Positions 4,689-35,084 of a stretch of DNA of 64,000 bases are shown here, one piece after another; within the stretch, counting starts at the first letter, position 1, and each line of letters starts with the position of its first letter. Under the pieces are notes generated by a model. It made no database searches and had not been told where the DNA came from. It saw only the letters and a list, made by a program, of their open reading frames with translations. Origin of the DNA: an uncultured Candidatus Poseidoniales archaeon (lineage in GTDB: Archaea > Thermoplasmatota > Poseidoniia > Poseidoniales > Poseidoniaceae). Location: the NCBI GenBank assembly GCA_902605365.1, contig CACLCM010000001.1, forward strand, positions 6,762-70,761. The letters run 5' to 3'. The translations under genes and the position numbers were made by a program.

Positions 4689-7586
4689 ATGGAACCCCGC
4701 AGACGAGACACAAAACGAGGTCAACATCGAGCCAGTATTCTACTGGTTTCATTGTTACTGATTTCACTGGTTCCAGCAATTGCAAACCCTGTTACTGCGG
4801 ACGATTCTGGCAGGGATGCTAACATCTCACTTTCGATTACGCCTAGTTCCCAAACAGTAAACCCTGGAGAGACTGCAGAATACACCGTTCGCGTTTACAA
4901 CAATGGCGCCAATCCGGTTTCGGTAAATTTAGCGGCAACCAATGAACAAGATTGTACAGGATATTCCTCTGCTATTGGTCAAATAGGGCAGCCAATTGAC
5001 TCAGGTTCCTATGAGGAAACTTTCCTCAATGTCTCCCTCGCTCAAAATGCAGAAGGGTCGTGTATCACTACCGTTACAGCAAATGCCAATGAGCAAGTAA
5101 CTCCTCCTGACCAACCAGGAGCACCAGCTCAGTCTACTCAAGATGTTGAGACAACAGCCGGCGACGGAGCCGGCTCTGCGGTTTTCGGTGTTGAATTGAC
5201 AGTCGACAACCCTCACAAGCAATGGTCTGGTGAAACTACAATTGAATGGGATGTAGAAGTAGAAAATACAGGTCGAGTTCAAGAGACAATTGATCTTACT
5301 ATCGATACAGTTGGAGGTTCAGGATGTACTTCAGATGGAAGTATGTCAATAGATGTTGAACCTAGTCAAGTGCAACTCGACAATGAATCTTCAGAATGGG
5401 TAACTGTTACTTTAGAAGTTCCAGAAGGTAAAGCTAGTGACAAGTACTGCTGGGAAATCGAAGGAGTTGTTTCCAATGACCAAAACCCCAACGGAAGCGC
5501 ATCTGATGTAGAAGAGTTTGATCTCAACGTTCCAGAGTTGAAGGAATGTGAATTAACTCTATCAAAGTCCAGTATGAGTATAGAGCCTGGAGAGACGGGA
5601 ACTCTAGTTGCCACATTTACTAACGAAGGTAATACTGATTGGTCCGTCAATGTTGGATTCACAGGTAGCCATTCAATGTGGGCTAGCGTTGATGGCGCAT
5701 CTAGTGGAATGCTGCCATATAATGGTGGCAATGGCGAAAAAGAGTTCACAATCGAAGTCACTCCAGATGATTCGATTGAGGCTAATTCGCAAAAGTCGAT
5801 AACAATTCAAGGCAAAGATGGAAACACAGCAAAATGTAATGCTGAAGTTTCGATTACAGTAGGGCAATCTCGAGGCGCAATAATGTCATTGGGTAACACT
5901 GCATTGTACAATGTCGAGCCTGGACAAAACGCTACTACAACCTTGACTGTAACCAATCAGGGTAACGGTCCAGATACCTTCCGAGTATCAGCTTCAGCCC
6001 CGCCTTCTGGTTGGTCAGTCTCACTTGAGTCCTCGACAATTTCTACTCAGTCAAGGCACAGTAATGAAAAATCTGGAACGATTGATGTCTCAATTTCTCT
6101 GCCAAATGATGCTCTTGCAACAGAAGAAGTAACGATAACTTTCTCAGTTATGCCAACTTCAAGTGGCGGGTCTTATGACACTCAAGAGTTGAAAATCACA
6201 GTCAAATCGGTCCATGCAATGAGTGGAAATGCTCCTGCTGAAGACCAAACCGGTCGCTCAGATACTACTGTTCAATTCCCTCTAACCATAACCAATGATG
6301 GAAACACACTTGACAGATTCCGCTTCTCTGTAATTTCTCAAACAGCTCAACCTGGTTGGGGCAAACATTTCGAAACAGCAGATGGAACAATTGTCACAGA
6401 AGTCGATATCGATGCGAGAACCACAGTAACAATGTACCTTGTAGTGTCTATTGATGGGGAAGAAGAATTGGAGAGTTCAAGGCTTACAGTTAGAGTAACT
6501 AATCTTGGAGACAACAATAATGGCGACGATGATAATGACAATGTTCCAGATAACCAGTTGGAATTTGTATTCAGAGCGATCCTATCTGACAGGGATTTTG
6601 CAATGGATGTAATCATCATGAATTCTCCTGATGATTTAACTCGTAATGCAATGCTGATATTGCCACCAGGTGGTTCACAAACATATTACCTGATGGTGAC
6701 TAATACTGGAGATATGACCGACGAAGCAATCTTTGATTTCAGCGGATTATCCGGTACTGCAACCCGTAGTTTAACTTTCAGAGGTATGCCAATAGATGGG
6801 CCTATCTCGATTCCTAAAGGATGGGGCGCTTACAATGAATCAACCGGGACATTCTACTTTGACGGTAATTCTCCTCTAATCGGCTCAAGCGAAGACAAAA
6901 TCTTCGAGAAGATAGTCGCAAATGATTTGGTAGATTCTCATTCACCTGCTCCATATTACGCTATTATTCTGATGGAGGTCGGAGTAAATTCTGGAGCAGA
7001 AAATGGCGATGGTGGTTTACTGGAAGTAGTGGTTACTTCAGTATCAAATGCTGCAAATAGGAGCGGTAAAATCACTATATCTCTGTCAGTGGAAACAGTT
7101 CTTGACGTTGAAATGGAACTGATGGGTGGCGTTGAGAAAGACATCGTCTTTGGCGAGATTGGTAACTCTGCCCGTTTCGAGGTTTTACTGTCTAATTCAG
7201 GAAATGTAGAGTCTGAGTTCAAGGTATTTTCTAGTGGTGGTTTGCGCGGTTGGAGTGTAATTCTCAGTTCTGAATCTAACTCTATCTGTGAAAACAAAGG
7301 AGACCATCTTCTTTGTACTCTAGATGAAGGTGAATCTGTGATGATCTATGCGAAAGTAAACCCTCCTAGCGGCGATAATACTGAAGTTGAAGATTCCTTT
7401 ACCTTCACACTTTCAACAGAGCCATCGGACATTGGTTTGGTAGGTAGGGAGAACCTTGAATTGACAGTAAATGGCCAACCCGAGGAGTTTGCATTCAATT
7501 CTCTGATTACTCCGAATGTTTTGATGTCAATGGCGGCATTAGTGCTTATTGGGTTTGCATATCTTGCTCTGCGTCGTCGTAACTGA
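4689..7586 (+). CDS. Large secreted cell-surface protein with CARDB-like repeat domains and C-terminal hydrophobic anchor plus RRRN tail
   Basis: Signal peptide ASILLVSLLLISLVPAIA. Repeated VTNQGN/TNEGN/TNTGD/SNSGN motifs typical of CARDB-like Ig folds. C-terminal MSMAALVLIGFAYLALRRRN. Confidence 0.6.
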   Translation: MEPRRRDTKRGQHRASILLVSLLLISLVPAIANPVTADDSGRDANISLSITPSSQTVNPGETAEYTVRVYNNGANPVSVNLAATNEQDCTGYSSAIGQIGQPIDSGSYEETFLNVSLAQNAEGSCITTVTANANEQVTPPDQPGAPAQSTQDVETTAGDGAGSAVFGVELTVDNPHKQWSGETTIEWDVEVENTGRVQETIDLTIDTVGGSGCTSDGSMSIDVEPSQVQLDNESSEWVTVTLEVPEGKASDKYCWEIEGVVSNDQNPNGSASDVEEFDLNVPELKECELTLSKSSMSIEPGETGTLVATFTNEGNTDWSVNVGFTGSHSMWASVDGASSGMLPYNGGNGEKEFTIEVTPDDSIEANSQKSITIQGKDGNTAKCNAEVSITVGQSRGAIMSLGNTALYNVEPGQNATTTLTVTNQGNGPDTFRVSASAPPSGWSVSLESSTISTQSRHSNEKSGTIDVSISLPNDALATEEVTITFSVMPTSSGGSYDTQELKITVKSVHAMSGNAPAEDQTGRSDTTVQFPLTITNDGNTLDRFRFSVISQTAQPGWGKHFETADGTIVTEVDIDARTTVTMYLVVSIDGEEELESSRLTVRVTNLGDNNNGDDDNDNVPDNQLEFVFRAILSDRDFAMDVIIMNSPDDLTRNAMLILPPGGSQTYYLMVTNTGDMTDEAIFDFSGLSGTATRSLTFRGMPIDGPISIPKGWGAYNESTGTFYFDGNSPLIGSSEDKIFEKIVANDLVDSHSPAPYYAIILMEVGVNSGAENGDGGLLEVVVTSVSNAANRSGKITISLSVETVLDVEMELMGGVEKDIVFGEIGNSARFEVLLSNSGNVESEFKVFSSGGLRGWSVILSSESNSICENKGDHLLCTLDEGESVMIYAKVNPPSGDNTEVEDSFTFTLSTEPSDIGLVGRENLELTVNGQPEEFAFNSLITPNVLMSMAALVLIGFAYLALRRRN

Positions 7587-7600
7587 CCCCTACGGGGTCA
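7584..7600 (+). terminator. GC-rich tri-loop hairpin (TGACCCC-TAC-GGGGTCA) overlapping the stop codon of the preceding gene
   Basis: Perfect 7-bp inverted repeat with 3-nt loop directly seen; sits between convergent/tandem genes ahead of the nuo operon. Confidence 0.4.
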
Positions 7601-7705
7601 TGGACTATTCTATCGCTTCACTCGCGTGGGCGTGAGACAACGCTTATGGATGGTTGTCGTTTGGCCTAGACTAGAGAGTGACATCACTCTCGGTTGGTGG
7701 CATAG

Positions 7706-26799: not shown

Positions 26800-27366
26800 A
26801 TGATGAGACCTCGTAAGGCAATGTCTGCTTTCGTCATGCTGGCCATTCTAATGGCGTCCAGCATGGGGTGCATCGGACTTGTTCCTGCTCGTGAATTCAT
26901 GGAAGACCTTCGTGAACCTCCACAGTTGATTCAGGAAATTGAACGAATAAATGTCGACCACGTATTTGTTACAGATATTACCGATATCACATATAGTACA
27001 AACTATACCAACTCTTTCTATTTTGAGGTCGATTCAGATGTTTCAGAAATCAGTGCTTACATCACTGCGGCTATGGCTCTTGACTTGGTCATACCAGTTC
27101 CGACCGAAGTAAGATATGTCAAAGCAGTACTAACCGATGCTGACGGAAATCAAATTTGGTATGAGGAGTTAACCGAAACCAAAAGGCCAGCCGTAGCAAC
27201 ATTTCAACAGCCTCTTGCTGAGGGGACCTGGACATTATATGTTGATGCTAGAGGATATGGAGAAGAAATTGGTAATCTCTACAAAGATTCCTTCCAAGTT
27301 TTGATCAAAGTCGATAGGTACTGTTGGGAGTACCATGGTGAAGAAGGCTGCACCTATGACGATTAG
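26800..27366 (+). CDS. Small secreted putative lipoprotein
   Basis: Signal peptide with lipobox-like LMASSMGC; no other recognisable domain. Confidence 0.45.
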   Translation: MMRPRKAMSAFVMLAILMASSMGCIGLVPAREFMEDLREPPQLIQEIERINVDHVFVTDITDITYSTNYTNSFYFEVDSDVSEISAYITAAMALDLVIPVPTEVRYVKAVLTDADGNQIWYEELTETKRPAVATFQQPLAEGTWTLYVDARGYGEEIGNLYKDSFQVLIKVDRYCWEYHGEEGCTYDD

Positions 27367-28541
27367 ACTAGTCTAGAGTCACAAGCATATCTTCTAGAAC
27401 AACTTTCGCACTTTCCTTTGCGATTATGATTTCTTTCCGCCCCGCCTTCAGTCATCAATCTTTGAATTTCTTTGACGGCAGAAAAGAGGGAATGCTTGTT
27501 TGAGTCATTCCAATCAATCGAATGTAGGTTTTCACTTCCATACCTCAGCACTCCATAAGGAGGTTTTCTACCAGTTGTAGATTCGACCAAATGGAGATAG
27601 GCCAATAACTGCATTTTGTGGGACTTGTGAGGGCTCTTCGGTATCTTTCCAGTCTTTTGCTCAACAGGGATAAATTCACCCTCGACGATGACAATTTGAT
27701 CTGGTCTTCCCCGTAGCCCAGTAAAACCATCAACTAAGAGTCCAGCCTTTGATTCATCATCCGAATAAGTTACTTCAATATCTGCTTCGATACCAGCTTC
27801 CATTCTAGCAACTTCCAGCGCATTATCGGCAAGCAGTGCTCTCTGCAATTGCCAAGAAGCGAGCAGTGTCCATAGCATTGCCATAGATACCAAAATAAAT
27901 CCAGCTTGTTCCTTATCTGCCGCCCAAGTCAAGCCAATTGCGTGAAGGCCAAATATGGTGGCTCCCATTAGCAAACCGGCTTCGACCCTTCCACCTTGCC
28001 CCCATCCGCCAATAAATCCGTACGGCTGAAATGTGTTAGGAAGAATTGTATCATCTAGGTTTTTTAAATCATCAAATTCATTGGTCCTTTGAATCGGATT
28101 ATCAAACCATTTTCTCCACGGGAGATATACTGCAATCAGTCCTAAAAACAGCCAAACTATCGCTAAAATAGTTAGATATCTTGCAACATCCTCTGGAGCT
28201 CTAGTATTGGAAATAGTCATGAAAATTATTGCATCTGAAATGAAAATAATGATTATCGCGAACCACCATGACCAAATCACTAATGCTCTTTTCAATTCAT
28301 TTTGTTTTTGTTTGAAACCAGATACTTTTTGATGTATTTCAGCATGCTTTTCTCTACCTGCAGAAATTGCATCTCCTCGTCCCGTTTTACCATCTCGGGC
28401 CAATGCCCAAGACAGCGGACAATATGCGTGCCTCTCCAAATCACTAGCGGAAACATGGAGAGCATCACCTTCCTTATTGCGCCAAAAACCATCATCGCTT
28501 TCAACTGCGATTACGGATTCATTGGCTCTCTCAGTAGTCAC
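27363..28541 (-). CDS. Cas4-like PD-(D/E)xK nuclease (DUF83 family, Fe-S cysteines) with a 4-TM membrane insertion between nuclease motifs I and II; solo, no cas/CRISPR context
   Basis: N-terminal ERHAYCPLSWAL (Cas4 N-terminal Cys). GREKHAEIH (motif I). Four hydrophobic helices. RPDQIVIVEGEFIPVEQKTGK (motifs II/III D...ExK). QLLAYLHLV (QxxxY). C-terminal CESCSRRYAC (Cx2Cx5C). Confidence 0.7.
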   Translation of the reverse strand: MTTERANESVIAVESDDGFWRNKEGDALHVSASDLERHAYCPLSWALARDGKTGRGDAISAGREKHAEIHQKVSGFKQKQNELKRALVIWSWWFAIIIIFISDAIIFMTISNTRAPEDVARYLTILAIVWLFLGLIAVYLPWRKWFDNPIQRTNEFDDLKNLDDTILPNTFQPYGFIGGWGQGGRVEAGLLMGATIFGLHAIGLTWAADKEQAGFILVSMAMLWTLLASWQLQRALLADNALEVARMEAGIEADIEVTYSDDESKAGLLVDGFTGLRGRPDQIVIVEGEFIPVEQKTGKIPKSPHKSHKMQLLAYLHLVESTTGRKPPYGVLRYGSENLHSIDWNDSNKHSLFSAVKEIQRLMTEGGAERNHNRKGKCESCSRRYACDSRLV

Positions 28542-30439: not shown

Positions 30440-30820
30440 TCATTTGTCTGCTATATTTTTCTCAAAATCGGTTTTTCCAAATCCATCTGGAATACCCCAC
30501 TTTTTGATATAAAATTCAATTGGAACAGCTCCATTTCCTCTGTCGACACCGTAATTTTCATCATAGATGTCCTCCACTATAGGCGCTGGACCATCGTATG
30601 ACAAGTACCAATTCTCAGCGACACCAGGACCACTCTCTGTGTCATCTGGACCAATCCAATTTTCATCCCTCTGTTTCATATTTGTTGTAGCAGTATTGCC
30701 AAAAATTTTGGAAATGAAATTCATTAGCCAGGCGAACATAATTCCCCCACACATACTCGATTTATAGACAATATGCAATTTCGAATCATAGGGAGAACTT
30801 GTGAATGCCCCCGTTTGCAT
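30440..30820 (-). CDS. Hypothetical small protein; first codons (MQTG) lie inside inverted-repeat copy A
   Basis: ORF only; the start overlaps the repeat element. Confidence 0.35.
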   Translation of the reverse strand: MQTGAFTSSPYDSKLHIVYKSSMCGGIMFAWLMNFISKIFGNTATTNMKQRDENWIGPDDTESGPGVAENWYLSYDGPAPIVEDIYDENYGVDRGNGAVPIEFYIKKWGIPDGFGKTDFEKNIADK

Positions 30821-30905
30821 GGGTAGCGTCTAAAATGACCCACGCAAAGCCCATTCAAACAACAATCACATTCGGAAGGGTATTCGGATAGGCCCTTGCG
30901 AATTA
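30806..30905. repeat. Inverted-repeat copy A (about 100 bp) of a three-copy element; left boundary of a 1.65-kb cassette
   Basis: About 85-90% identical to the reverse complement of 32341-32450 (shared core CATGGGTAGCGTCTAAAATGACCCACGCAAAGCCCATTCAAACA). Confidence 0.7.
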
Positions 30906-31091
30906 TCCATATTTGATTATTTGATACTCAATTTCTTTTCTAAACACTACCCTGGTGTATGCCCTTGTACACATGGGTGTCCCATTAACACTCTATCACG
31001 TATGCAGGCACAAGGGCCACTCTATGATATCGACAGAATTCTTTAGGATGGATGATAAATGAATTAAAAAAAGTCCCCCTCATCTACATAC

Positions 31092-31685
31092 ATGGACTCA
31101 GGCCTAGGAGACGACGAAGTCGTTCCTTCGAAACTCGACAAGGATTTCACAACGGAACCCGTCTCGGTAATAGGCCTCATCGCTTTTTCCTTTTTTGTAG
31201 TACCAGGAGCGTTTATTTTCGGAGGGGTGGGGGTCTGGTTACTGTTCTTCTCGATAATGAATCCATATCACGAAGACGGGGGACTAGTGGGGTTTGTATG
31301 TATGGGGATTCCCCTTACATTAGTTGGATTGTTTTGCTTCTTATTATGGTGGGCTGGCGTAATCAAGGAACGCCTGCGCATACAGCACAGCAGGGATCGA
31401 CTGGTCTACCAGGCTACGCTTCTCGGGCTCGGGCTCCCTCCGCTTAGGGGACTCGGTTTACTCTCCGAGAAGAGGCGCCTCTCAGAAGCAGTTTACCTCG
31501 AGACCGACAAAGATGGGGACGATGCAATGATCCACGGCCGCTCGAGCGAGGGGGTGGAATGGGAGCTTGATATCGATTCTGTGGTTTCCGAATTGGCGGA
31601 AGCCGAGAATCCATACAACCCACCACGCCAAAAAAAGGCGAGAGATATAGCGGAATCAATTGGCATTGAGTTCCGAATGGAGTGA
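31092..31685 (+). CDS. Hypothetical membrane protein (2 TM helices + cytoplasmic domain) encoded in visibly GC-richer DNA
   Basis: Hydrophobic helices VIGLIAFSFFVVPGAFIFGGVGVWLLFF and FVCMGIPLTLVGLFCFLLWWAGVI. Codon and GC usage differ from the neighbours by eye. Confidence 0.5.
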   Translation: MDSGLGDDEVVPSKLDKDFTTEPVSVIGLIAFSFFVVPGAFIFGGVGVWLLFFSIMNPYHEDGGLVGFVCMGIPLTLVGLFCFLLWWAGVIKERLRIQHSRDRLVYQATLLGLGLPPLRGLGLLSEKRRLSEAVYLETDKDGDDAMIHGRSSEGVEWELDIDSVVSELAEAENPYNPPRQKKARDIAESIGIEFRME

Positions 31686-31740
31686 CGTAATACCCTAAAG
31701 TGAATATCAACAGTATCATTGGGATATACATTGGTAGATG

Positions 31741-31840
31741 TTGAAGACCATCTAGTCTGATATTCGGATGGGTCCCCCTTCCAAACACCCTCATTCGAGA
31801 GGGTACCCATGCAAACGGGGGTATTGGCATGGGTTTCGAA
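31741..31840. repeat. Internal partial copy B of the repeat element (same orientation as copy C)
   Basis: Shares CCCATGCAAACGGGGG and TATTCGGAT blocks with copy A (as reverse complement). Confidence 0.5.
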
Positions 31841-31880
31841 AGGGCCGTCATATTGAGGCTTGTAATCGTCGCAATTTTGG

Positions 31881-32285
31881 TTAGCGCGACGCTTCGTAAT
31901 CAATTATGCATGGGGATTCATGAATGTACACTACCTCTTGTTCTCGGGTTTTTGCCTCACAAGAAATGCATACTGGAATTGCAGTAATTATCTCATCGTA
32001 AGTCGTGATTCTATCGTCATCATGTACAGAAAATGTGTCGTCTTCAGTATTCAAATCAGTAATTTCACATGTAACCATAATTGACTTTTTTGAATAATTT
32101 GAGCAGTCAAAAATAGAGCAGGGGAAATTATAATCCTCATGTGCTTGACTGATTGCGTGAATCCATGTCATAGAGTATGAGCGCCTACCGTATTTCTTGC
32201 GTGGAGATGAAGTAGATATGTCAGAAATAATTAATCTTTCATACTCGCCCTCATCGAGGATATATGGTGCTAAATCAATTGCCAT
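31881..32285 (-). CDS. Hypothetical Cys-rich small protein (134 aa) within the repeat-flanked cassette
   Basis: ORF with CSIFDCS and CISCEAK cysteine pairs; no recognisable family. Confidence 0.35.
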   Translation of the reverse strand: MAIDLAPYILDEGEYERLIISDISTSSPRKKYGRRSYSMTWIHAISQAHEDYNFPCSIFDCSNYSKKSIMVTCEITDLNTEDDTFSVHDDDRITTYDEIITAIPVCISCEAKTREQEVVYIHESPCIIDYEASR

Positions 32286-32340
32286 GTGATTACTAAGTTA
32301 GTTGAACATATAATACTAGTCAAAAGTATCAACATATTCA

Positions 32341-32450
32341 TTCGGATACTTTACAAGAGGTTATCCGATTACCCATTCGAATGTAATTGATGTTTGAATG
32401 GGCTTTGCGTGGGTCATTTTAGACGCTACCCATGCGAACACCTGTGATAC
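32341..32450. repeat. Inverted-repeat copy C; right boundary of the cassette
   Basis: Reverse complement aligns with 30806-30905 over about 95 bp. Confidence 0.7.
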
Positions 32451-32462
32451 GAGTCCAGAAAT

Positions 32463-35084
32463 CTATTCTAGTAATCTTCTAGTCTCATCTGGGTCGATGA
32501 AGATAGCACCTATGATCACCACAGTTTCCAATACTGCAGAGATAAGGAATAGTGTTGGATAATCAAATCTGCTTGCAAGAGGGTCAGTCAATTGGTAGCC
32601 AATAACCGCTGACAAATTCATCATAGCCATGTAGGCAGTAAATTGCGTTCCACCAACTTCGCCCCAGGTAATCCTCATCATCAATGAATATACGTTGATT
32701 GCAACCATTGCCCAAAGCAATGTGTGAATCGACCATATAGACATCATGAACAAACTACTACTCCAAAGTGACTCGCTCATTCCCCAAAATGCAGTGGCAA
32801 GTGCAGCCCCAAGCGCGGAATAAATCATCACTGATTTGCCGCCAAACTTTCTCCCAAGCTGACCTCCTACAATGTATCCAATCATAGTTACAACAAGTAT
32901 TACTCCACCCTTCGTGGCATTGAATTTTTCTTGAGACCAACTCAATTCTGCCAAGAACAATAATGGTAGAACTGGCACGAGGAAGAATGAGAGAGATATC
33001 ACCAAACTAAGGGCGATTCCTAACTGGGTTGAGCGAAGTGAAAATGCAGTTTTTACATTTGACAATATTTCTTTGAAAGTACGTTCCTCTTCTTCTGCCT
33101 TAGTCCCATCTGGGTATGTGATTTCTATCGTAATCTCCTCATCCCAAGGGAATAATTTCTCTCCGGGCCTCTCTCTCATCAATAATGGGACCAGCATGAT
33201 GACTAGGAGGATTGGAATCTGGAGTAATATTGCACCAGTGATTCCGATTTTACCTATGATTGTCCCTAGTCCCGCTCCACCGATTATTCCTCCAACGGTT
33301 TTGGATGTGAACATGTAGCTGTTGACCTTCTCCATTTCATGCGGCTTTAGTATGTCAACCGCAAGAGCATCTGTGCTGACATCTTGTAGAGAGGTGAATA
33401 TATTGTAGACCAAAAACATCGTCGCAACCAACTGAACATTGCTTGCCGGATTAGGAATGAATAACATCGAAGATAGTATCAAGACCATTCCTGTTTGTGC
33501 GATTAAAATCCAAGGTCTTCTTCTTCCGAACTGGCGGTATTGGAAGCGATCTATTACCGGGCCCCATAGGAATTTCAGTGACCAAGGTAAAGTTCCTAGA
33601 GTTAGTAAAAATGCTAACTCCTTTGCTGCAACTCCCTCTACTGCGAGGAATGTTACGAAAGTTACAGTGATGAATCCCCAAGGTATTCCTTGGGCGACAT
33701 ACAGAGCGCATAGAGTCAGTACTCTTGCCCGATAATTATCTATCAACGTTTTACCTTCAGAATCGGATTCTTTAGGTCCTGAAATTTCAGAATCATCTTC
33801 CAAAATCATTCCTAATTGGAATTGGTCTCTTCTTATAGTAATGAATCCTACAACTGCAAACATTCCTAAGAACCAAGGCGAGAACAGTATTCCCGAAATA
33901 CTACCAGTGCCAACCGACATAGAAGATGCCGAATCTTCTTCGCTAGTCATATCCGATTCATTGGAATTCCAATCTAGCCATGCTAGAGTTGCAACGACAT
34001 CTAAGCCAGTTTGTAGACCAGATTCCAAATTATTTCGTCCTCCTGCAAGAGTATTAATTACTGCAACATTATCGCTTTGTGAGTGTTTTGGAGTTTGTTC
34101 ACAAGAATCACCTTCTTCGAAAATATACTGATGCTGACCCCTTAACCAAGTGGCAGTATGGTTGTTCATTATGAAATTGAAATGGTCGGAGTTTCCTTTG
34201 GTATCATCGATAACACGAACCCATTCATCAGGATGAGATAGGTCCGAATTAATTTGTTTGAGATGGTTTTGAAACCATTCAGCATTCGAACGCATTTCAT
34301 CTGTAACCTCTAATCCATTATTCTCATAATATGACCAATCTGAAACAGGAGATGTGAACATGTAAAGCGTCCAATAATCCTCATCACAGCCCGATAATTG
34401 ACTTGCTAATGGTGTAGGGACTGGCCAATTAAGTCCGAACATATCGAGATTGACATAGGTGACATTAACATCATCAGGAATCTGTTCGGTAACGAAATGA
34501 AGACTACCCATCCCTCCTCCTTCAGAAGATGATGACCCCTGCCATTCCTCATAGTCCCACCATGCTAATTTCCACGTGTGTGAAGGAGTTTGGTTCCATT
34601 CCGAAAAAGTTCTCGCCAATTCCAGTAGTGATCCACTTCCTGTACCGTCATCATAAGCTCCTGAATTTGTACAACCAGTATATGTCTGTCCGATTAGAGG
34701 CGGAGGAGAATAGCAAATCGCATCATGATGGGCACCTACAACAATCCAATCATCCTCTTGAGTTCCATTGATGGTTACAACCAAATTTTCACAGTTATTA
34801 CATTCTTGAGTTTGGAAAGGTTGCCTTTCAACATAATATCCCATCCCCTCTAACTCTTCAGCAATCCAGTCTCTTGCGTCAAAGTTAGCCTGAGTGTCAA
34901 TCTTTCTGTAACCGAAGTCTGCCATCGCCACCATGTTGTCATACGCAGCACTCCCTTCAGGCCAAGCAGGAGGAACTTCATCGGCTTGTGCTTTGACATC
35001 ATTTGGATATGCAAGTGCGCTTGAAAGTGATACTTGAACTACCAATAGGCCCAGAAGGATTGCGAAAACCAACCTCCTGTGCAT
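32463..35084 (-). CDS. Fusion protein: secreted M28-family zinc aminopeptidase domain + AmpG-like MFS permease domain (about 12 TM)
   Basis: Signal peptide. M28 ligand motifs VVGAHHDA, AYDDGTGS, DYEEW, NLDMFG, SDHFNF. C-terminal half with LPWSLKFLWGPVIDR (AmpG/MFS signature) and multiple TM helices. Confidence 0.75.
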   Translation of the reverse strand: MHRRLVFAILLGLLVVQVSLSSALAYPNDVKAQADEVPPAWPEGSAAYDNMVAMADFGYRKIDTQANFDARDWIAEELEGMGYYVERQPFQTQECNNCENLVVTINGTQEDDWIVVGAHHDAICYSPPPLIGQTYTGCTNSGAYDDGTGSGSLLELARTFSEWNQTPSHTWKLAWWDYEEWQGSSSSEGGGMGSLHFVTEQIPDDVNVTYVNLDMFGLNWPVPTPLASQLSGCDEDYWTLYMFTSPVSDWSYYENNGLEVTDEMRSNAEWFQNHLKQINSDLSHPDEWVRVIDDTKGNSDHFNFIMNNHTATWLRGQHQYIFEEGDSCEQTPKHSQSDNVAVINTLAGGRNNLESGLQTGLDVVATLAWLDWNSNESDMTSEEDSASSMSVGTGSISGILFSPWFLGMFAVVGFITIRRDQFQLGMILEDDSEISGPKESDSEGKTLIDNYRARVLTLCALYVAQGIPWGFITVTFVTFLAVEGVAAKELAFLLTLGTLPWSLKFLWGPVIDRFQYRQFGRRRPWILIAQTGMVLILSSMLFIPNPASNVQLVATMFLVYNIFTSLQDVSTDALAVDILKPHEMEKVNSYMFTSKTVGGIIGGAGLGTIIGKIGITGAILLQIPILLVIMLVPLLMRERPGEKLFPWDEEITIEITYPDGTKAEEEERTFKEILSNVKTAFSLRSTQLGIALSLVISLSFFLVPVLPLLFLAELSWSQEKFNATKGGVILVVTMIGYIVGGQLGRKFGGKSVMIYSALGAALATAFWGMSESLWSSSLFMMSIWSIHTLLWAMVAINVYSLMMRITWGEVGGTQFTAYMAMMNLSAVIGYQLTDPLASRFDYPTLFLISAVLETVVIIGAIFIDPDETRRLLE

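Follow-up and report, generated by a model that had tools for sequence, protein, structure and literature searches.

In a 64,000-nucleotide (nt) stretch of contig CACLCM010000001.1 (assembly GCA_902605365.1, positions 6,762 to 70,761), which originates from an uncultured Candidatus Poseidoniales archaeon and is called the window in the following, two ~100-nt repeat units, A and C, lie in inverted orientation between a conserved gene for a protein of about 100 amino acids (aa), p100, and a gene for an M28-peptidase/MFS fusion protein. From our point of view, this interval probably represents an insertion hotspot that holds two non-autonomous cassettes of one family, namely (i) E1, which consists of unit A and a gene for a 197-aa hydrophobic protein, and (ii) E2, which consists of unit C and a gene for a 134-aa Cys-rich protein. 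This is carried by two observations: both modules occur separately in other genomic contexts, where homology breaks exactly at a TA dinucleotide, and A and C are members of an order-wide Poseidoniales family of ~100-nt repeats. A serine recombinase of 257-262 aa, encoded beside such units in related loci, is by its sequence context the likely enzyme moving E1 and E2.

Separate occurrence of the two modules and the TA junction

A preliminary description of this DNA had regarded the island as a single GC-shifted cassette bounded by A and C. The inverted repeat as such is real, as the two arms (30813-30908 and 32344-32439) are 88% complementary over 96 nt without gaps and match at 84.6% over 117 nt with gaps (E 9e-28), and share an identical core of 25 nt with a chance expectation of 0. 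Instead of one cassette, however, we find two independent modules of opposite orientation (Table 1), each of which is found separately elsewhere.

The 134-aa protein of E2 is encoded identically on six other contigs (designated L123 to L128 among the loci that we collected). On the 255-kb contig of GCA_045568415.1 (L123), E2 resides at an unrelated locus near the genes for succinyl-CoA ligase and triose-phosphate isomerase, with 98.1% identity over 635 nt (window 31804-32438); the homology spans exactly TA to TA, ends at 31804 and is followed by a different unit after the TA, while unit C with its tail is 91.8% identical. L124 and L125 also diverge from the window at the TA at 31804/5, and the E2 end is followed there by a third sequence, such that the E2 end and its TA have three different partners across assemblies. 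The remaining E2 contigs measure 0.5-0.8 kb and are broken inside the unit.

For E1, contig L001 shows 98.8% identity, which drops to ~70% right after the TA at 31805, into a ZIP-transporter gene. The core of the E1 gene (30971-31698) is also present in another species (PBGP02000016.1, L030) with 93.5% identity at the DNA and 91% at the protein level, and lies there between units in a different arrangement. Two contigs of near-identical strains, L001 and L002, depart from the window precisely where units or TAs lie. Because exact or near-exact copies exist on other contigs, the two open reading frames (ORFs) of 197 and 134 aa are real genes, as had been proposed beforehand. Neither protein matches a family in Pfam, PADLOC, PHROGs or NCBIfam, and the search of defence and viral profiles called for in the preliminary description hence gave no assignment of the cargo.

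E1 can be delimited by its flanks. The 16-nt sequences CCCCCGTTTGCATGGG and CCCATGCAAACGGGGG are perfect reverse complements, each abutting a TA, and form a perfect 34-nt palindrome around TA when rejoined, which is why we regard 30824-31805 as a discrete insertion. The same architecture is seen in L069, where a gene-less element of 101 nt is centred in a perfect 40-nt palindrome (ACACGGACATTGTATAGGG-TA-CCCTATACAATGTCCGTGT). This complete element is likewise closed by an E1-type right terminus, which also follows a unit in L096, and the two ends of E1 match at 9/13 positions in the same pattern as in L069. For E2 and most units, no inverted partner terminus is seen.

Metagenome contigs were further scanned with CCCCCGTTTGCATGGGTA, which yielded 29 loci. 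Two classes of sequence recur after the TA, namely complementary half-sites (CCCATGC..., CCCTATACAAT..., CCCTTCCGAAT...) and unit heads (GCGTCTAGAATGG..., GCGACGAATAGCACCCAC...); unrelated sequence follows in L145, L146, L149, L154, L163 and L164, which are probably chance matches or matches outside marine group II (MGII). In five of these contigs, a stretch of 540-636 nt that ends at the TA is 97.6-100% identical, while the sequences past the TA are unrelated. This common piece (TA, type-2 unit, ~150-aa ORF, palindromes, TA) has four different left neighbours. Recent exchange between species is apparent from such comparisons of the same cassette beside different neighbours, with 98-99.6% sequence identity across GTDB species representatives.

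Several details of the preliminary description have to be modified as a consequence of this anatomy. A presumed third repeat copy inside the island is a match of 35 nt (31791-31825, 86% to 30804-30838), of which 16 bases are the flanking palindrome arm and the remainder is the right terminus of E1; it is thus a junction rather than a unit, and the window contains no unit copies beyond A and C. The block CCCATGC(A/G)AACGGGGG, said to end every copy, is present at A and at this junction, but unit C has CCCATGCGAACACCTG instead. The shifted GC content holds for the 197-aa gene, with a peak of 0.567 against a window mean of 0.437, but not for the GC-poor half with the 134-aa gene (0.378-0.386). 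The absence of a transposase or integrase from the window was borne out, also by tblastn with the associated recombinase as query, as was the general notion of non-autonomous, mobile or recombined DNA whose cargo differs in composition and which lacks its own recombinase. Conserved synteny of the arrangement, without repeats at other places, had been named as an observation that would speak against mobility; the opposite was observed, with many copies of the repeat at other loci and no synteny of the block, and in related species the DNA after the Dus gene and after the M28-MFS gene holds different small genes and different units.

The half-site motif TTYRNANSGGTA occurs five times in the 64 kb, against 0.73 expected, and all occurrences are within the island, three at the junctions and one inside each unit. 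The internal sites found by the motif scan (TTCGGAAGGGTA in unit A at 30871-30882, TTCGAATGGGTA in unit C at 32370-32381) are each followed by a TA (TTCGGAAGGG-TA and TTCGAATGGG-TA). This might constitute a second crossover point, which may account for the many half-length units at other loci (e.g. L019, L068, L113 and L116).

Table 1. Features of the island and its borders (window coordinates)
Feature	Position	Strand	Remarks
p100, conserved 99/100-aa gene	30440..30739	-	borders the island; 142 homologues
Variable tail with left palindrome arm CCCCCGTTTGCATGGG (30808-30823)	30780..30823	.	absent from L002, where homology resumes at 30779
TA junction 1, left end of E1	30824..30825	.	TA common to all unit heads examined
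Module E1	30824-31805	+	TA, unit A, 197-aa gene, terminus CACCCTCATTCGAGAGGG, TA
Unit A, type-2 unit	30824..30919	+	head TAGCGTCTAAAATGACCCAC; nhmmer score 76, E 8e-22
E1 cargo, 197-aa hydrophobic protein	31092..31685	+	GC 0.517; exact copy on L001
E1 right terminus CACCCTCATTCGAGAGGG, hairpin CCCTC/GAGGG	31786..31803	+	imperfect inverted copy of the unit head
TA junction 2	31804..31805	.	common to E1 right end and E2 3' end
E2 3' end, hairpin CCCATGC-N14-GCATGGG with right palindrome arm CCCATGCAAACGGGGG (31806-31821)	31806..31838	-	conserved with E2 in L123, L124, L125
E2 cargo, 134-aa Cys-rich protein	31881..32285	-	GC 0.378; identical protein on six other contigs
Unit C, type-2 unit heading E2	32331..32428	-	nhmmer score 77, E 6e-22
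Module E2	32428 to 31804	-	TA, unit C, 134-aa gene, hairpin CCCATGC-N14-GCATGGG, TA
TA junction 3	32427-32428	.	head of unit C
Half-site CCCATGCGAAC	32429..32439	.	flanked by unit C and the M28-MFS stop codon
M28-peptidase/MFS gene	32463-35084	-	873 aa; stop codon faces unit C

The unit family of the Poseidoniales and a candidate recombinase

Units of the family are defined by a head TA-GCGTCT-N2-A-N4-CCCAC, a hairpin 1 and a subsequent GGG(G)...CCC(C)/TTCGGATAA...TTATCCGAA part. A and C score 76-77 bits against a profile built from 93 copies, and their heads match the pattern exactly. Loci were collected with the head pattern TAGCGTCT-N2-A-N4-CCCAC, for which the matches listed amount to more than 117 stretches in genomes of GTDB species. 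Almost all of these belong to Poseidoniaceae or Thalassarchaeaceae; single-cell genomes, long-read contigs and CM001443.1, the original MG-II chromosome, are among them. An nhmmer search with the profile detected 231 units, which are spread over 147 loci and reach a density of five units per 8 kb. When aligned, the units measure ~100 nt, have a sharp 5' edge and fall into two main subtypes, A and C belonging to the rarer type 2. All visible heads (191/191) begin with TA, preceded by GGG in 86, CGG in 32 and CGC in 24 cases, and head-to-head dimers that share one TA (AGACGC-TA-GCGTCT) number ~42, involving about 22% of the heads.

The units are intergenic, often at contig ends, and show no orientation bias relative to genes. 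In the near-identical strain contig L002 (98.7%), the unit beside p100 has the opposite orientation and is fused head-to-head (GACGC-TA-GCGTC) to another inverted pair that brackets two small zinc-ribbon ORFs. A role of the unit as a 5' leader or start module was rejected, as all four gene configurations are seen and the p100 unit is inverted in this sister strain; the outward-facing start or promoter module that had been suggested for copy A is not supported either, and the MQTG start is not conserved. We could not find a description of these units, their junctions or the recombinase family in the Poseidoniales literature.

A number of further observations concern the distribution and the cargo of the units. 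Typical units are present on short contigs in an Opitutia (L048) and a Chloroflexota (L080) metagenome-assembled genome, most likely due to binning contamination by Poseidoniales DNA. In L047, L034, L071, L079 and L066, a unit, often as a head-to-head dimer, follows a divergent gene pair for an HxlR regulator and a 378-aa oxidoreductase-like protein; since this position is kept in five genomes, some copies are old and vertically inherited. A census of palindromes in 0.8 Mb of unit-bearing loci gave none with strict arms and 18 palindromes of the GGG(N0-4)CCC type with looser arms. Tandem short palindromes made of half-sites of the unit-family type (e.g. TTTCGAGAGGG-TA-CCCTCTCGAAA) are found in L052:1-110, L073:5230-5330 and L120:60-200, and may be uninserted landing sites or scars. 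A protein with an N-terminal CPxC...CPxC zinc ribbon and transmembrane segments is a recurrent cargo beside units in several species (L112:62-661, L113:6443-6829 and 7294-7668, L087:2217-2837, L030:1439-1789). ORFs of ~152 aa adjoin units in L034 (479-937, minus strand) and L047 (5380-5841, plus strand) and contain, behind a Cys-rich N-terminus, the sequence HVYVIEL...YVG(I/E)T, similar by eye to the motif of GIY-YIG nucleases; they have no Pfam match. Between two inverted units of L034 (1118-1834, plus strand), a 238-aa protein with a PLD-like nuclease domain is encoded (PLDc_2, E 7e-10), possibly a defence gene.

Among 150 unit-adjacent ORFs, one is a serine recombinase (PF00239, Resolvase, E 3e-32, motif AYIRVSSQRQ), whereas no DDE or HUH transposase was detected among these ORFs or in unit-flanked intervals. 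The protein carries an N-terminal catalytic domain, which resembles gamma-delta resolvase and TP901-1 integrase (PDB, E about 1e-12), and a weak Recombinase-domain fragment. Its best named NCBIfam families are CcrB and XisF, both far below the cutoffs (CcrB 70 bits versus a cutoff of 900; for IS607, 27 bits versus 110). There are 788 homologues at E 1e-10 or better, mostly on contigs of ~1 kb, a length typical for repeated or hypervariable DNA. Six distinct contexts of the recombinase gene have a unit in the same orientation ~165 nt upstream of its start. A ~1040-nt recombinase module is common to five of these contexts (L129, L130, L131, L132, L136) with 92-98% identity and begins exactly at (G)GG-TA-(G/C)CG.GTGTACTGGGGGACTGAACACCC (CGG-TA in L129), and the sixth (L066) has the same junction at ~76% identity. 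In the single-cell genome AH-273-O19, a complete element of 2285 bp consists of TA, unit, recombinase gene, two membrane-protein genes, hairpin end and TA; this element is 99.6% identical between two species, with a visible end at a CGG-TA junction and differing flanks. A viral origin was considered and rejected, as a scan of IMG/VR with the unit pattern gave one chance-like match and the recombinase family was not detectable there, where only relatives of 35-39% identity are found.

Beside the recombinase module, a Mks/Wadjet-like set (MksE, MksF/DUF3584-type ATPase, DUF7281) is present in L130:1113-6105 and in L132/L133/L134/L135, and L129:5782-10531 and L136:5711-10569 each contain ~5 kb of small ORFs that lack annotation and are encoded on the other strand from the recombinase. 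The latter recall, in size and layout, the 4.6-kb 'Charybdis' elements, which a 2025 preprint (10.1101/2025.08.03.668216) reports to integrate into Poseidoniales genomes and to carry an integrase/recombinase.

Possible mechanism and alternative explanations

Serine recombinases bind as a dimer to two inverted half-sites and exchange strands at a central 2-bp overlap. In the mechanism that we propose, a cassette would consist of a TA, a ~100-nt structured unit with the head GCGTCT-N7-CCCAC and two hairpins, a small gene together with a promoter region of its own, a short terminal hairpin (...TTYGNANGGG) and a second TA. Its movement would be a conservative, site-specific recombination in which imperfect palindromic sites cross over at TA, with the serine recombinase supplied in trans and the recombinase gene itself representing the autonomous member of the family. 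The crossover dinucleotide TA is symmetric, which would allow cassettes to be inserted either way round. In the window, E2 would have settled after the M28-MFS gene, and probably ended originally in the 34-nt palindrome CCCCCGTTTGCATGGG-TA-CCCATGCAAACGGGGG, into the central TA of which E1 would then have inserted in the opposite orientation. As the homology to L002 resumes only at 30779, E2 probably once continued through the palindrome to ~30780, and the variable tail would probably be its displaced far end. Because of these two insertions, the inverted orientation of A and C would be an accident. The TA/TA ends are in line with this proposal, as are the palindromic targets (TTYGNANGGG-TA-CCCNTNCRAA), the unit sites in head-to-head arrangement and the hybrid junctions of the window. 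It predicts the excision joints CATTCGAGAGGG-TA-GCGTCTAAAATGACCC for E1 and CCCCCGTTTGCATGGG-TA-GCGTCTAAAATGACCC for E2, an empty E1 site that corresponds to the rejoined 34-nt palindrome, and a doubly empty site GTTCGCATGGG-TA-CCCATGCAAACGG.

Several points weigh against this interpretation. The invariance of the TA is partly built into the collection, since the pattern forces TAGCGTCT, although ~38 heads outside the pattern also have the TA. Only 2 of 145 unit heads (those of the window and of L069) have flanks that rebuild a palindrome within 6 kb, and most units are for this reason not demonstrable as ends of complete elements. The recombinase is not encoded in the 64 kb of the window, its link to E1 and E2 is made solely by the shared junction architecture and the homology of the units, and no additional units were recognisable in the arrays of small ORFs that adjoin it in L129 and L136. 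The predicted empty site gave 0 matches in one exact-match scan of the metagenome collection, and a flanking TA would equally be expected from a TA-duplicating DDE transposase.

The last point leads to the alternative that the modules are Stowaway-like miniature inverted-repeat transposable elements (MITEs) or cargo-carrying IS630/Tc1-mariner derivatives, moved by a DDE transposase that inserts at and duplicates TA. Such elements would account for the TA that flanks E1 and the 101-nt element of L069 on either side, for the imperfectly inverted termini (GCGTCTaaAATG versus CCCTCTcgAATG) and for the multicopy, non-autonomous nature of the modules. We nevertheless consider this unlikely, because no DDE parent was found among the 150 unit-adjacent ORFs or in any unit-flanked interval, most copies have one long end and no matching second terminus, head-to-head units share one TA instead of having one each, a recombinase of another class has the same junction, and E1 and E2, unlike MITEs, each carry a conserved ORF. 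A related explanation would be transposition of single-stranded DNA by an HUH tyrosine transposase, with the units as counterparts of repetitive extragenic palindromic (REP) sequences, their mosaic (BIME) and hairpin-forming doublet (REPIN) forms, or palindrome-associated (PATE) elements of the IS200/IS605 family, moved by a REP-associated tyrosine transposase (RAYT) or TnpA. The resemblance is considerable, as the units are abundant short intergenic repeats with asymmetric ends and subterminal hairpins, their head G-GTAG-CGTC-T contains both tags that define the REP superfamilies, head-to-head dimers predominate, and insertion occurs inside palindromes and close to gene 3' ends (PMC3733652). 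However, although the tag GGTAGCGTC is present, no palindrome of 20-40 nt abuts it and the first helix starts ~22 nt downstream; the unit is three times longer than a REP and leads a gene in many copies. No Y1/HUH transposase was seen in 0.8 Mb of unit-bearing loci, and REP/RAYT systems are known only from Bacteria, with classical IS200 TnpA as the sole form in Archaea (PMC6006769), so that we regard this explanation as quite improbable.

It is also conceivable that A and C are matched terminal inverted repeats of one composite 1.6-kb cassette or invertible segment that moves or flips as a block. The 96-nt arms with their 88% complementarity are what one would expect in this case, one source labels related recombinases as 'DNA invertase Pin-like', and the symmetric TA would make an inversion between A and C chemically possible. 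In contrast to a Hin/Gin/Pin switch, however, no recombinase lies within the 64 kb, the flipped arrangement is present on no contig, and the halves occur alone (E2 in L123 to L128, E1 in L001 and L030), with homology that also ends at the internal TA at 31804/5 and not only at the outer ends. Furthermore, A and C are no matched pair, as A is no closer to C (84%) than to units of other species (87.6% to L116, 86.7% to L088), which altogether makes this explanation very improbable. Lastly, the units could be selected structured RNAs or terminators, with differences in gene content arising through ordinary homologous recombination between dispersed repeats. Hairpin 1 indeed shows 87% pairing and compensatory exchanges from one subtype to the other, pairing reaches 90% in a competing GGGG/CCCC helix, the fold of unit C has a z-score of -4.5, and the units beside the HxlR/oxidoreductase pair are syntenic. 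Unit A, however, folds no better than shuffles, RNAalifold on 93 units predicts no consensus structure beyond a 3-bp helix, no Rfam family is matched, and the units stand in either orientation relative to genes. Homologous recombination between repeats is disfavoured because the breakpoints sit on one dinucleotide outside the shared repeat and join unrelated sequence classes. As such, this possibility appears highly unlikely to us as well, and insertion of two cassettes at TA by a serine recombinase remains the explanation that we prefer.

Genomic setting and comparison with known systems

The genes around the island encode archaeal ribosomal protein S2, Dus, a Cas4-like nuclease, RimK and the M28-peptidase/MFS fusion, and all relatives are from MGII archaea (Poseidoniales). 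The ORF at 30440-30820 (126 aa) runs up to an ATG at 30820, which had been taken as a start codon (MQTG) supplied by copy A. Since its 142 homologues, which come from marine euryarchaeal metagenomes, typically have 100-106 aa and cover ~79% of the ORF, translation most likely starts at M28 (30739), and the upstream extension to the ATG at 30820 is probably not translated; gene callers often extend p100 into the repeat unit. No Pfam, PADLOC, PHROG or NCBIfam match was obtained for p100, and look-ups of the exact sequences of the 126-aa ORF and of the 873-aa fusion protein found no record. The latter combines an M28 peptidase domain (residues 100-324) with an MFS/acetyl-CoA-transporter-like membrane domain (residues 457-829) and shows 62-90% conservation in three further loci of Poseidoniales (L084, L021, L045). 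The Cas4-like gene (27363-28541, minus strand) encodes a 392-aa protein with a C-terminal Cas4/PD-(D/E)XK nuclease domain and an apparently hydrophobic, possibly membrane-located middle part; it is syntenic with the S2 and Dus genes in L002 and L112, and no CRISPR array was seen. No tRNA (ARAGORN) and no Rfam family (scan at gathering thresholds) was found in the whole window, and a scan with bacterial consensus sequences of promoters and terminators was uninformative.

Poseidoniales are the most abundant planktonic archaea of surface oceans. MGII archaea are uncultured, and what is known of their strain-level variation in gene content is limited to 'flexible islands' and broken assemblies. 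One could speculate, and we would call this a tentative idea with somewhat less than even chances, that a small serine recombinase underlies a system for the exchange of gene cassettes across the whole order Poseidoniales. The ~100-nt units may in this case be portable attachment sites and ordinary intergenic GGG-TA-CCC hairpins the landing sites, and single-gene cassettes (for membrane, zinc-ribbon, nuclease and similar proteins) may enter many loci in either orientation and pass between species. The repeat unit, the fixed TA junction and the candidate enzyme would then give the gene-content variation of MGII a mechanism and explain why many MGII contigs end at these sequences. It would further become possible to catalogue cassettes systematically, much as attC sites allowed for integrons, and a compact 257-aa recombinase with a simple palindromic site would be at hand that is testable in vitro without culture of the host.

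Among the known systems, Tn4451/Tn5397 (TnpX/TndX) and the IS607 family move by conservative site-specific recombination via a circle, catalysed by a serine recombinase; the same dinucleotide (GA) is present at both ends, one copy is left per joint and no target duplication of the DDE type occurs. Similarly, in loci related to the window, an enzyme with a Resolvase domain and the catalytic Ser motif has the same ends as the cassettes, TA/TA is found at E1, E2 and the elements of L069 and L066, and the sites are imperfect palindromes, with target sites that read GCATGGG-TA-CCCATGC. In contrast to these transposons, the Poseidoniales enzyme has just 257-262 aa with no more than a fragment of the Recombinase domain, cargo cassettes without the enzyme far outnumber it, the left end is a structured unit of 100 nt, and the host is an archaeon. 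It is also not IS607 proper, as it does not match the family model and has its catalytic domain at the N-terminus, where the IS607 TnpA carries a MerR-like helix-turn-helix.

Staphylococcal cassette chromosome (SCC) elements with their Ccr recombinases are comparable in that cassettes with and without a serine recombinase are stacked and bounded by short repeated integration sequences, and CcrB is the best NCBIfam match of the recombinase despite its low score. Ccr proteins are, however, about twice as long, and SCC elements of tens of kb use one chromosomal site, whereas the Poseidoniales cassettes of 0.1-2.3 kb use many palindromic sites. The gene cassettes of integrons (IntI, attC), which have been reported in Archaea as well (PMC9668308), resemble the Poseidoniales modules in being small, mostly single-gene and promoter-poor, with one structured recombination site each, and in being exchanged between genomes and stacked in variable arrays. 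Different from integrons, the window holds no tyrosine integrase and there is no attI platform, the associated enzyme being a serine recombinase; the recombination site is at the 5' side of the module, and the modules are spread over many loci in both orientations rather than in a single array. The crossover, moreover, is at the TA in GGG-TA-(C/G)C(C/G), compared to G|TT in the integron R box.

Overall, the cassette logic resembles that of integrons, SCC elements and serine-recombinase transposons, while the full defining set of features of any one of these families is absent. Should the idea of an exchange system be true, it would in functional terms be an integron that lacks its platform, and a serine recombinase would for the first time be the driving enzyme of such a system.

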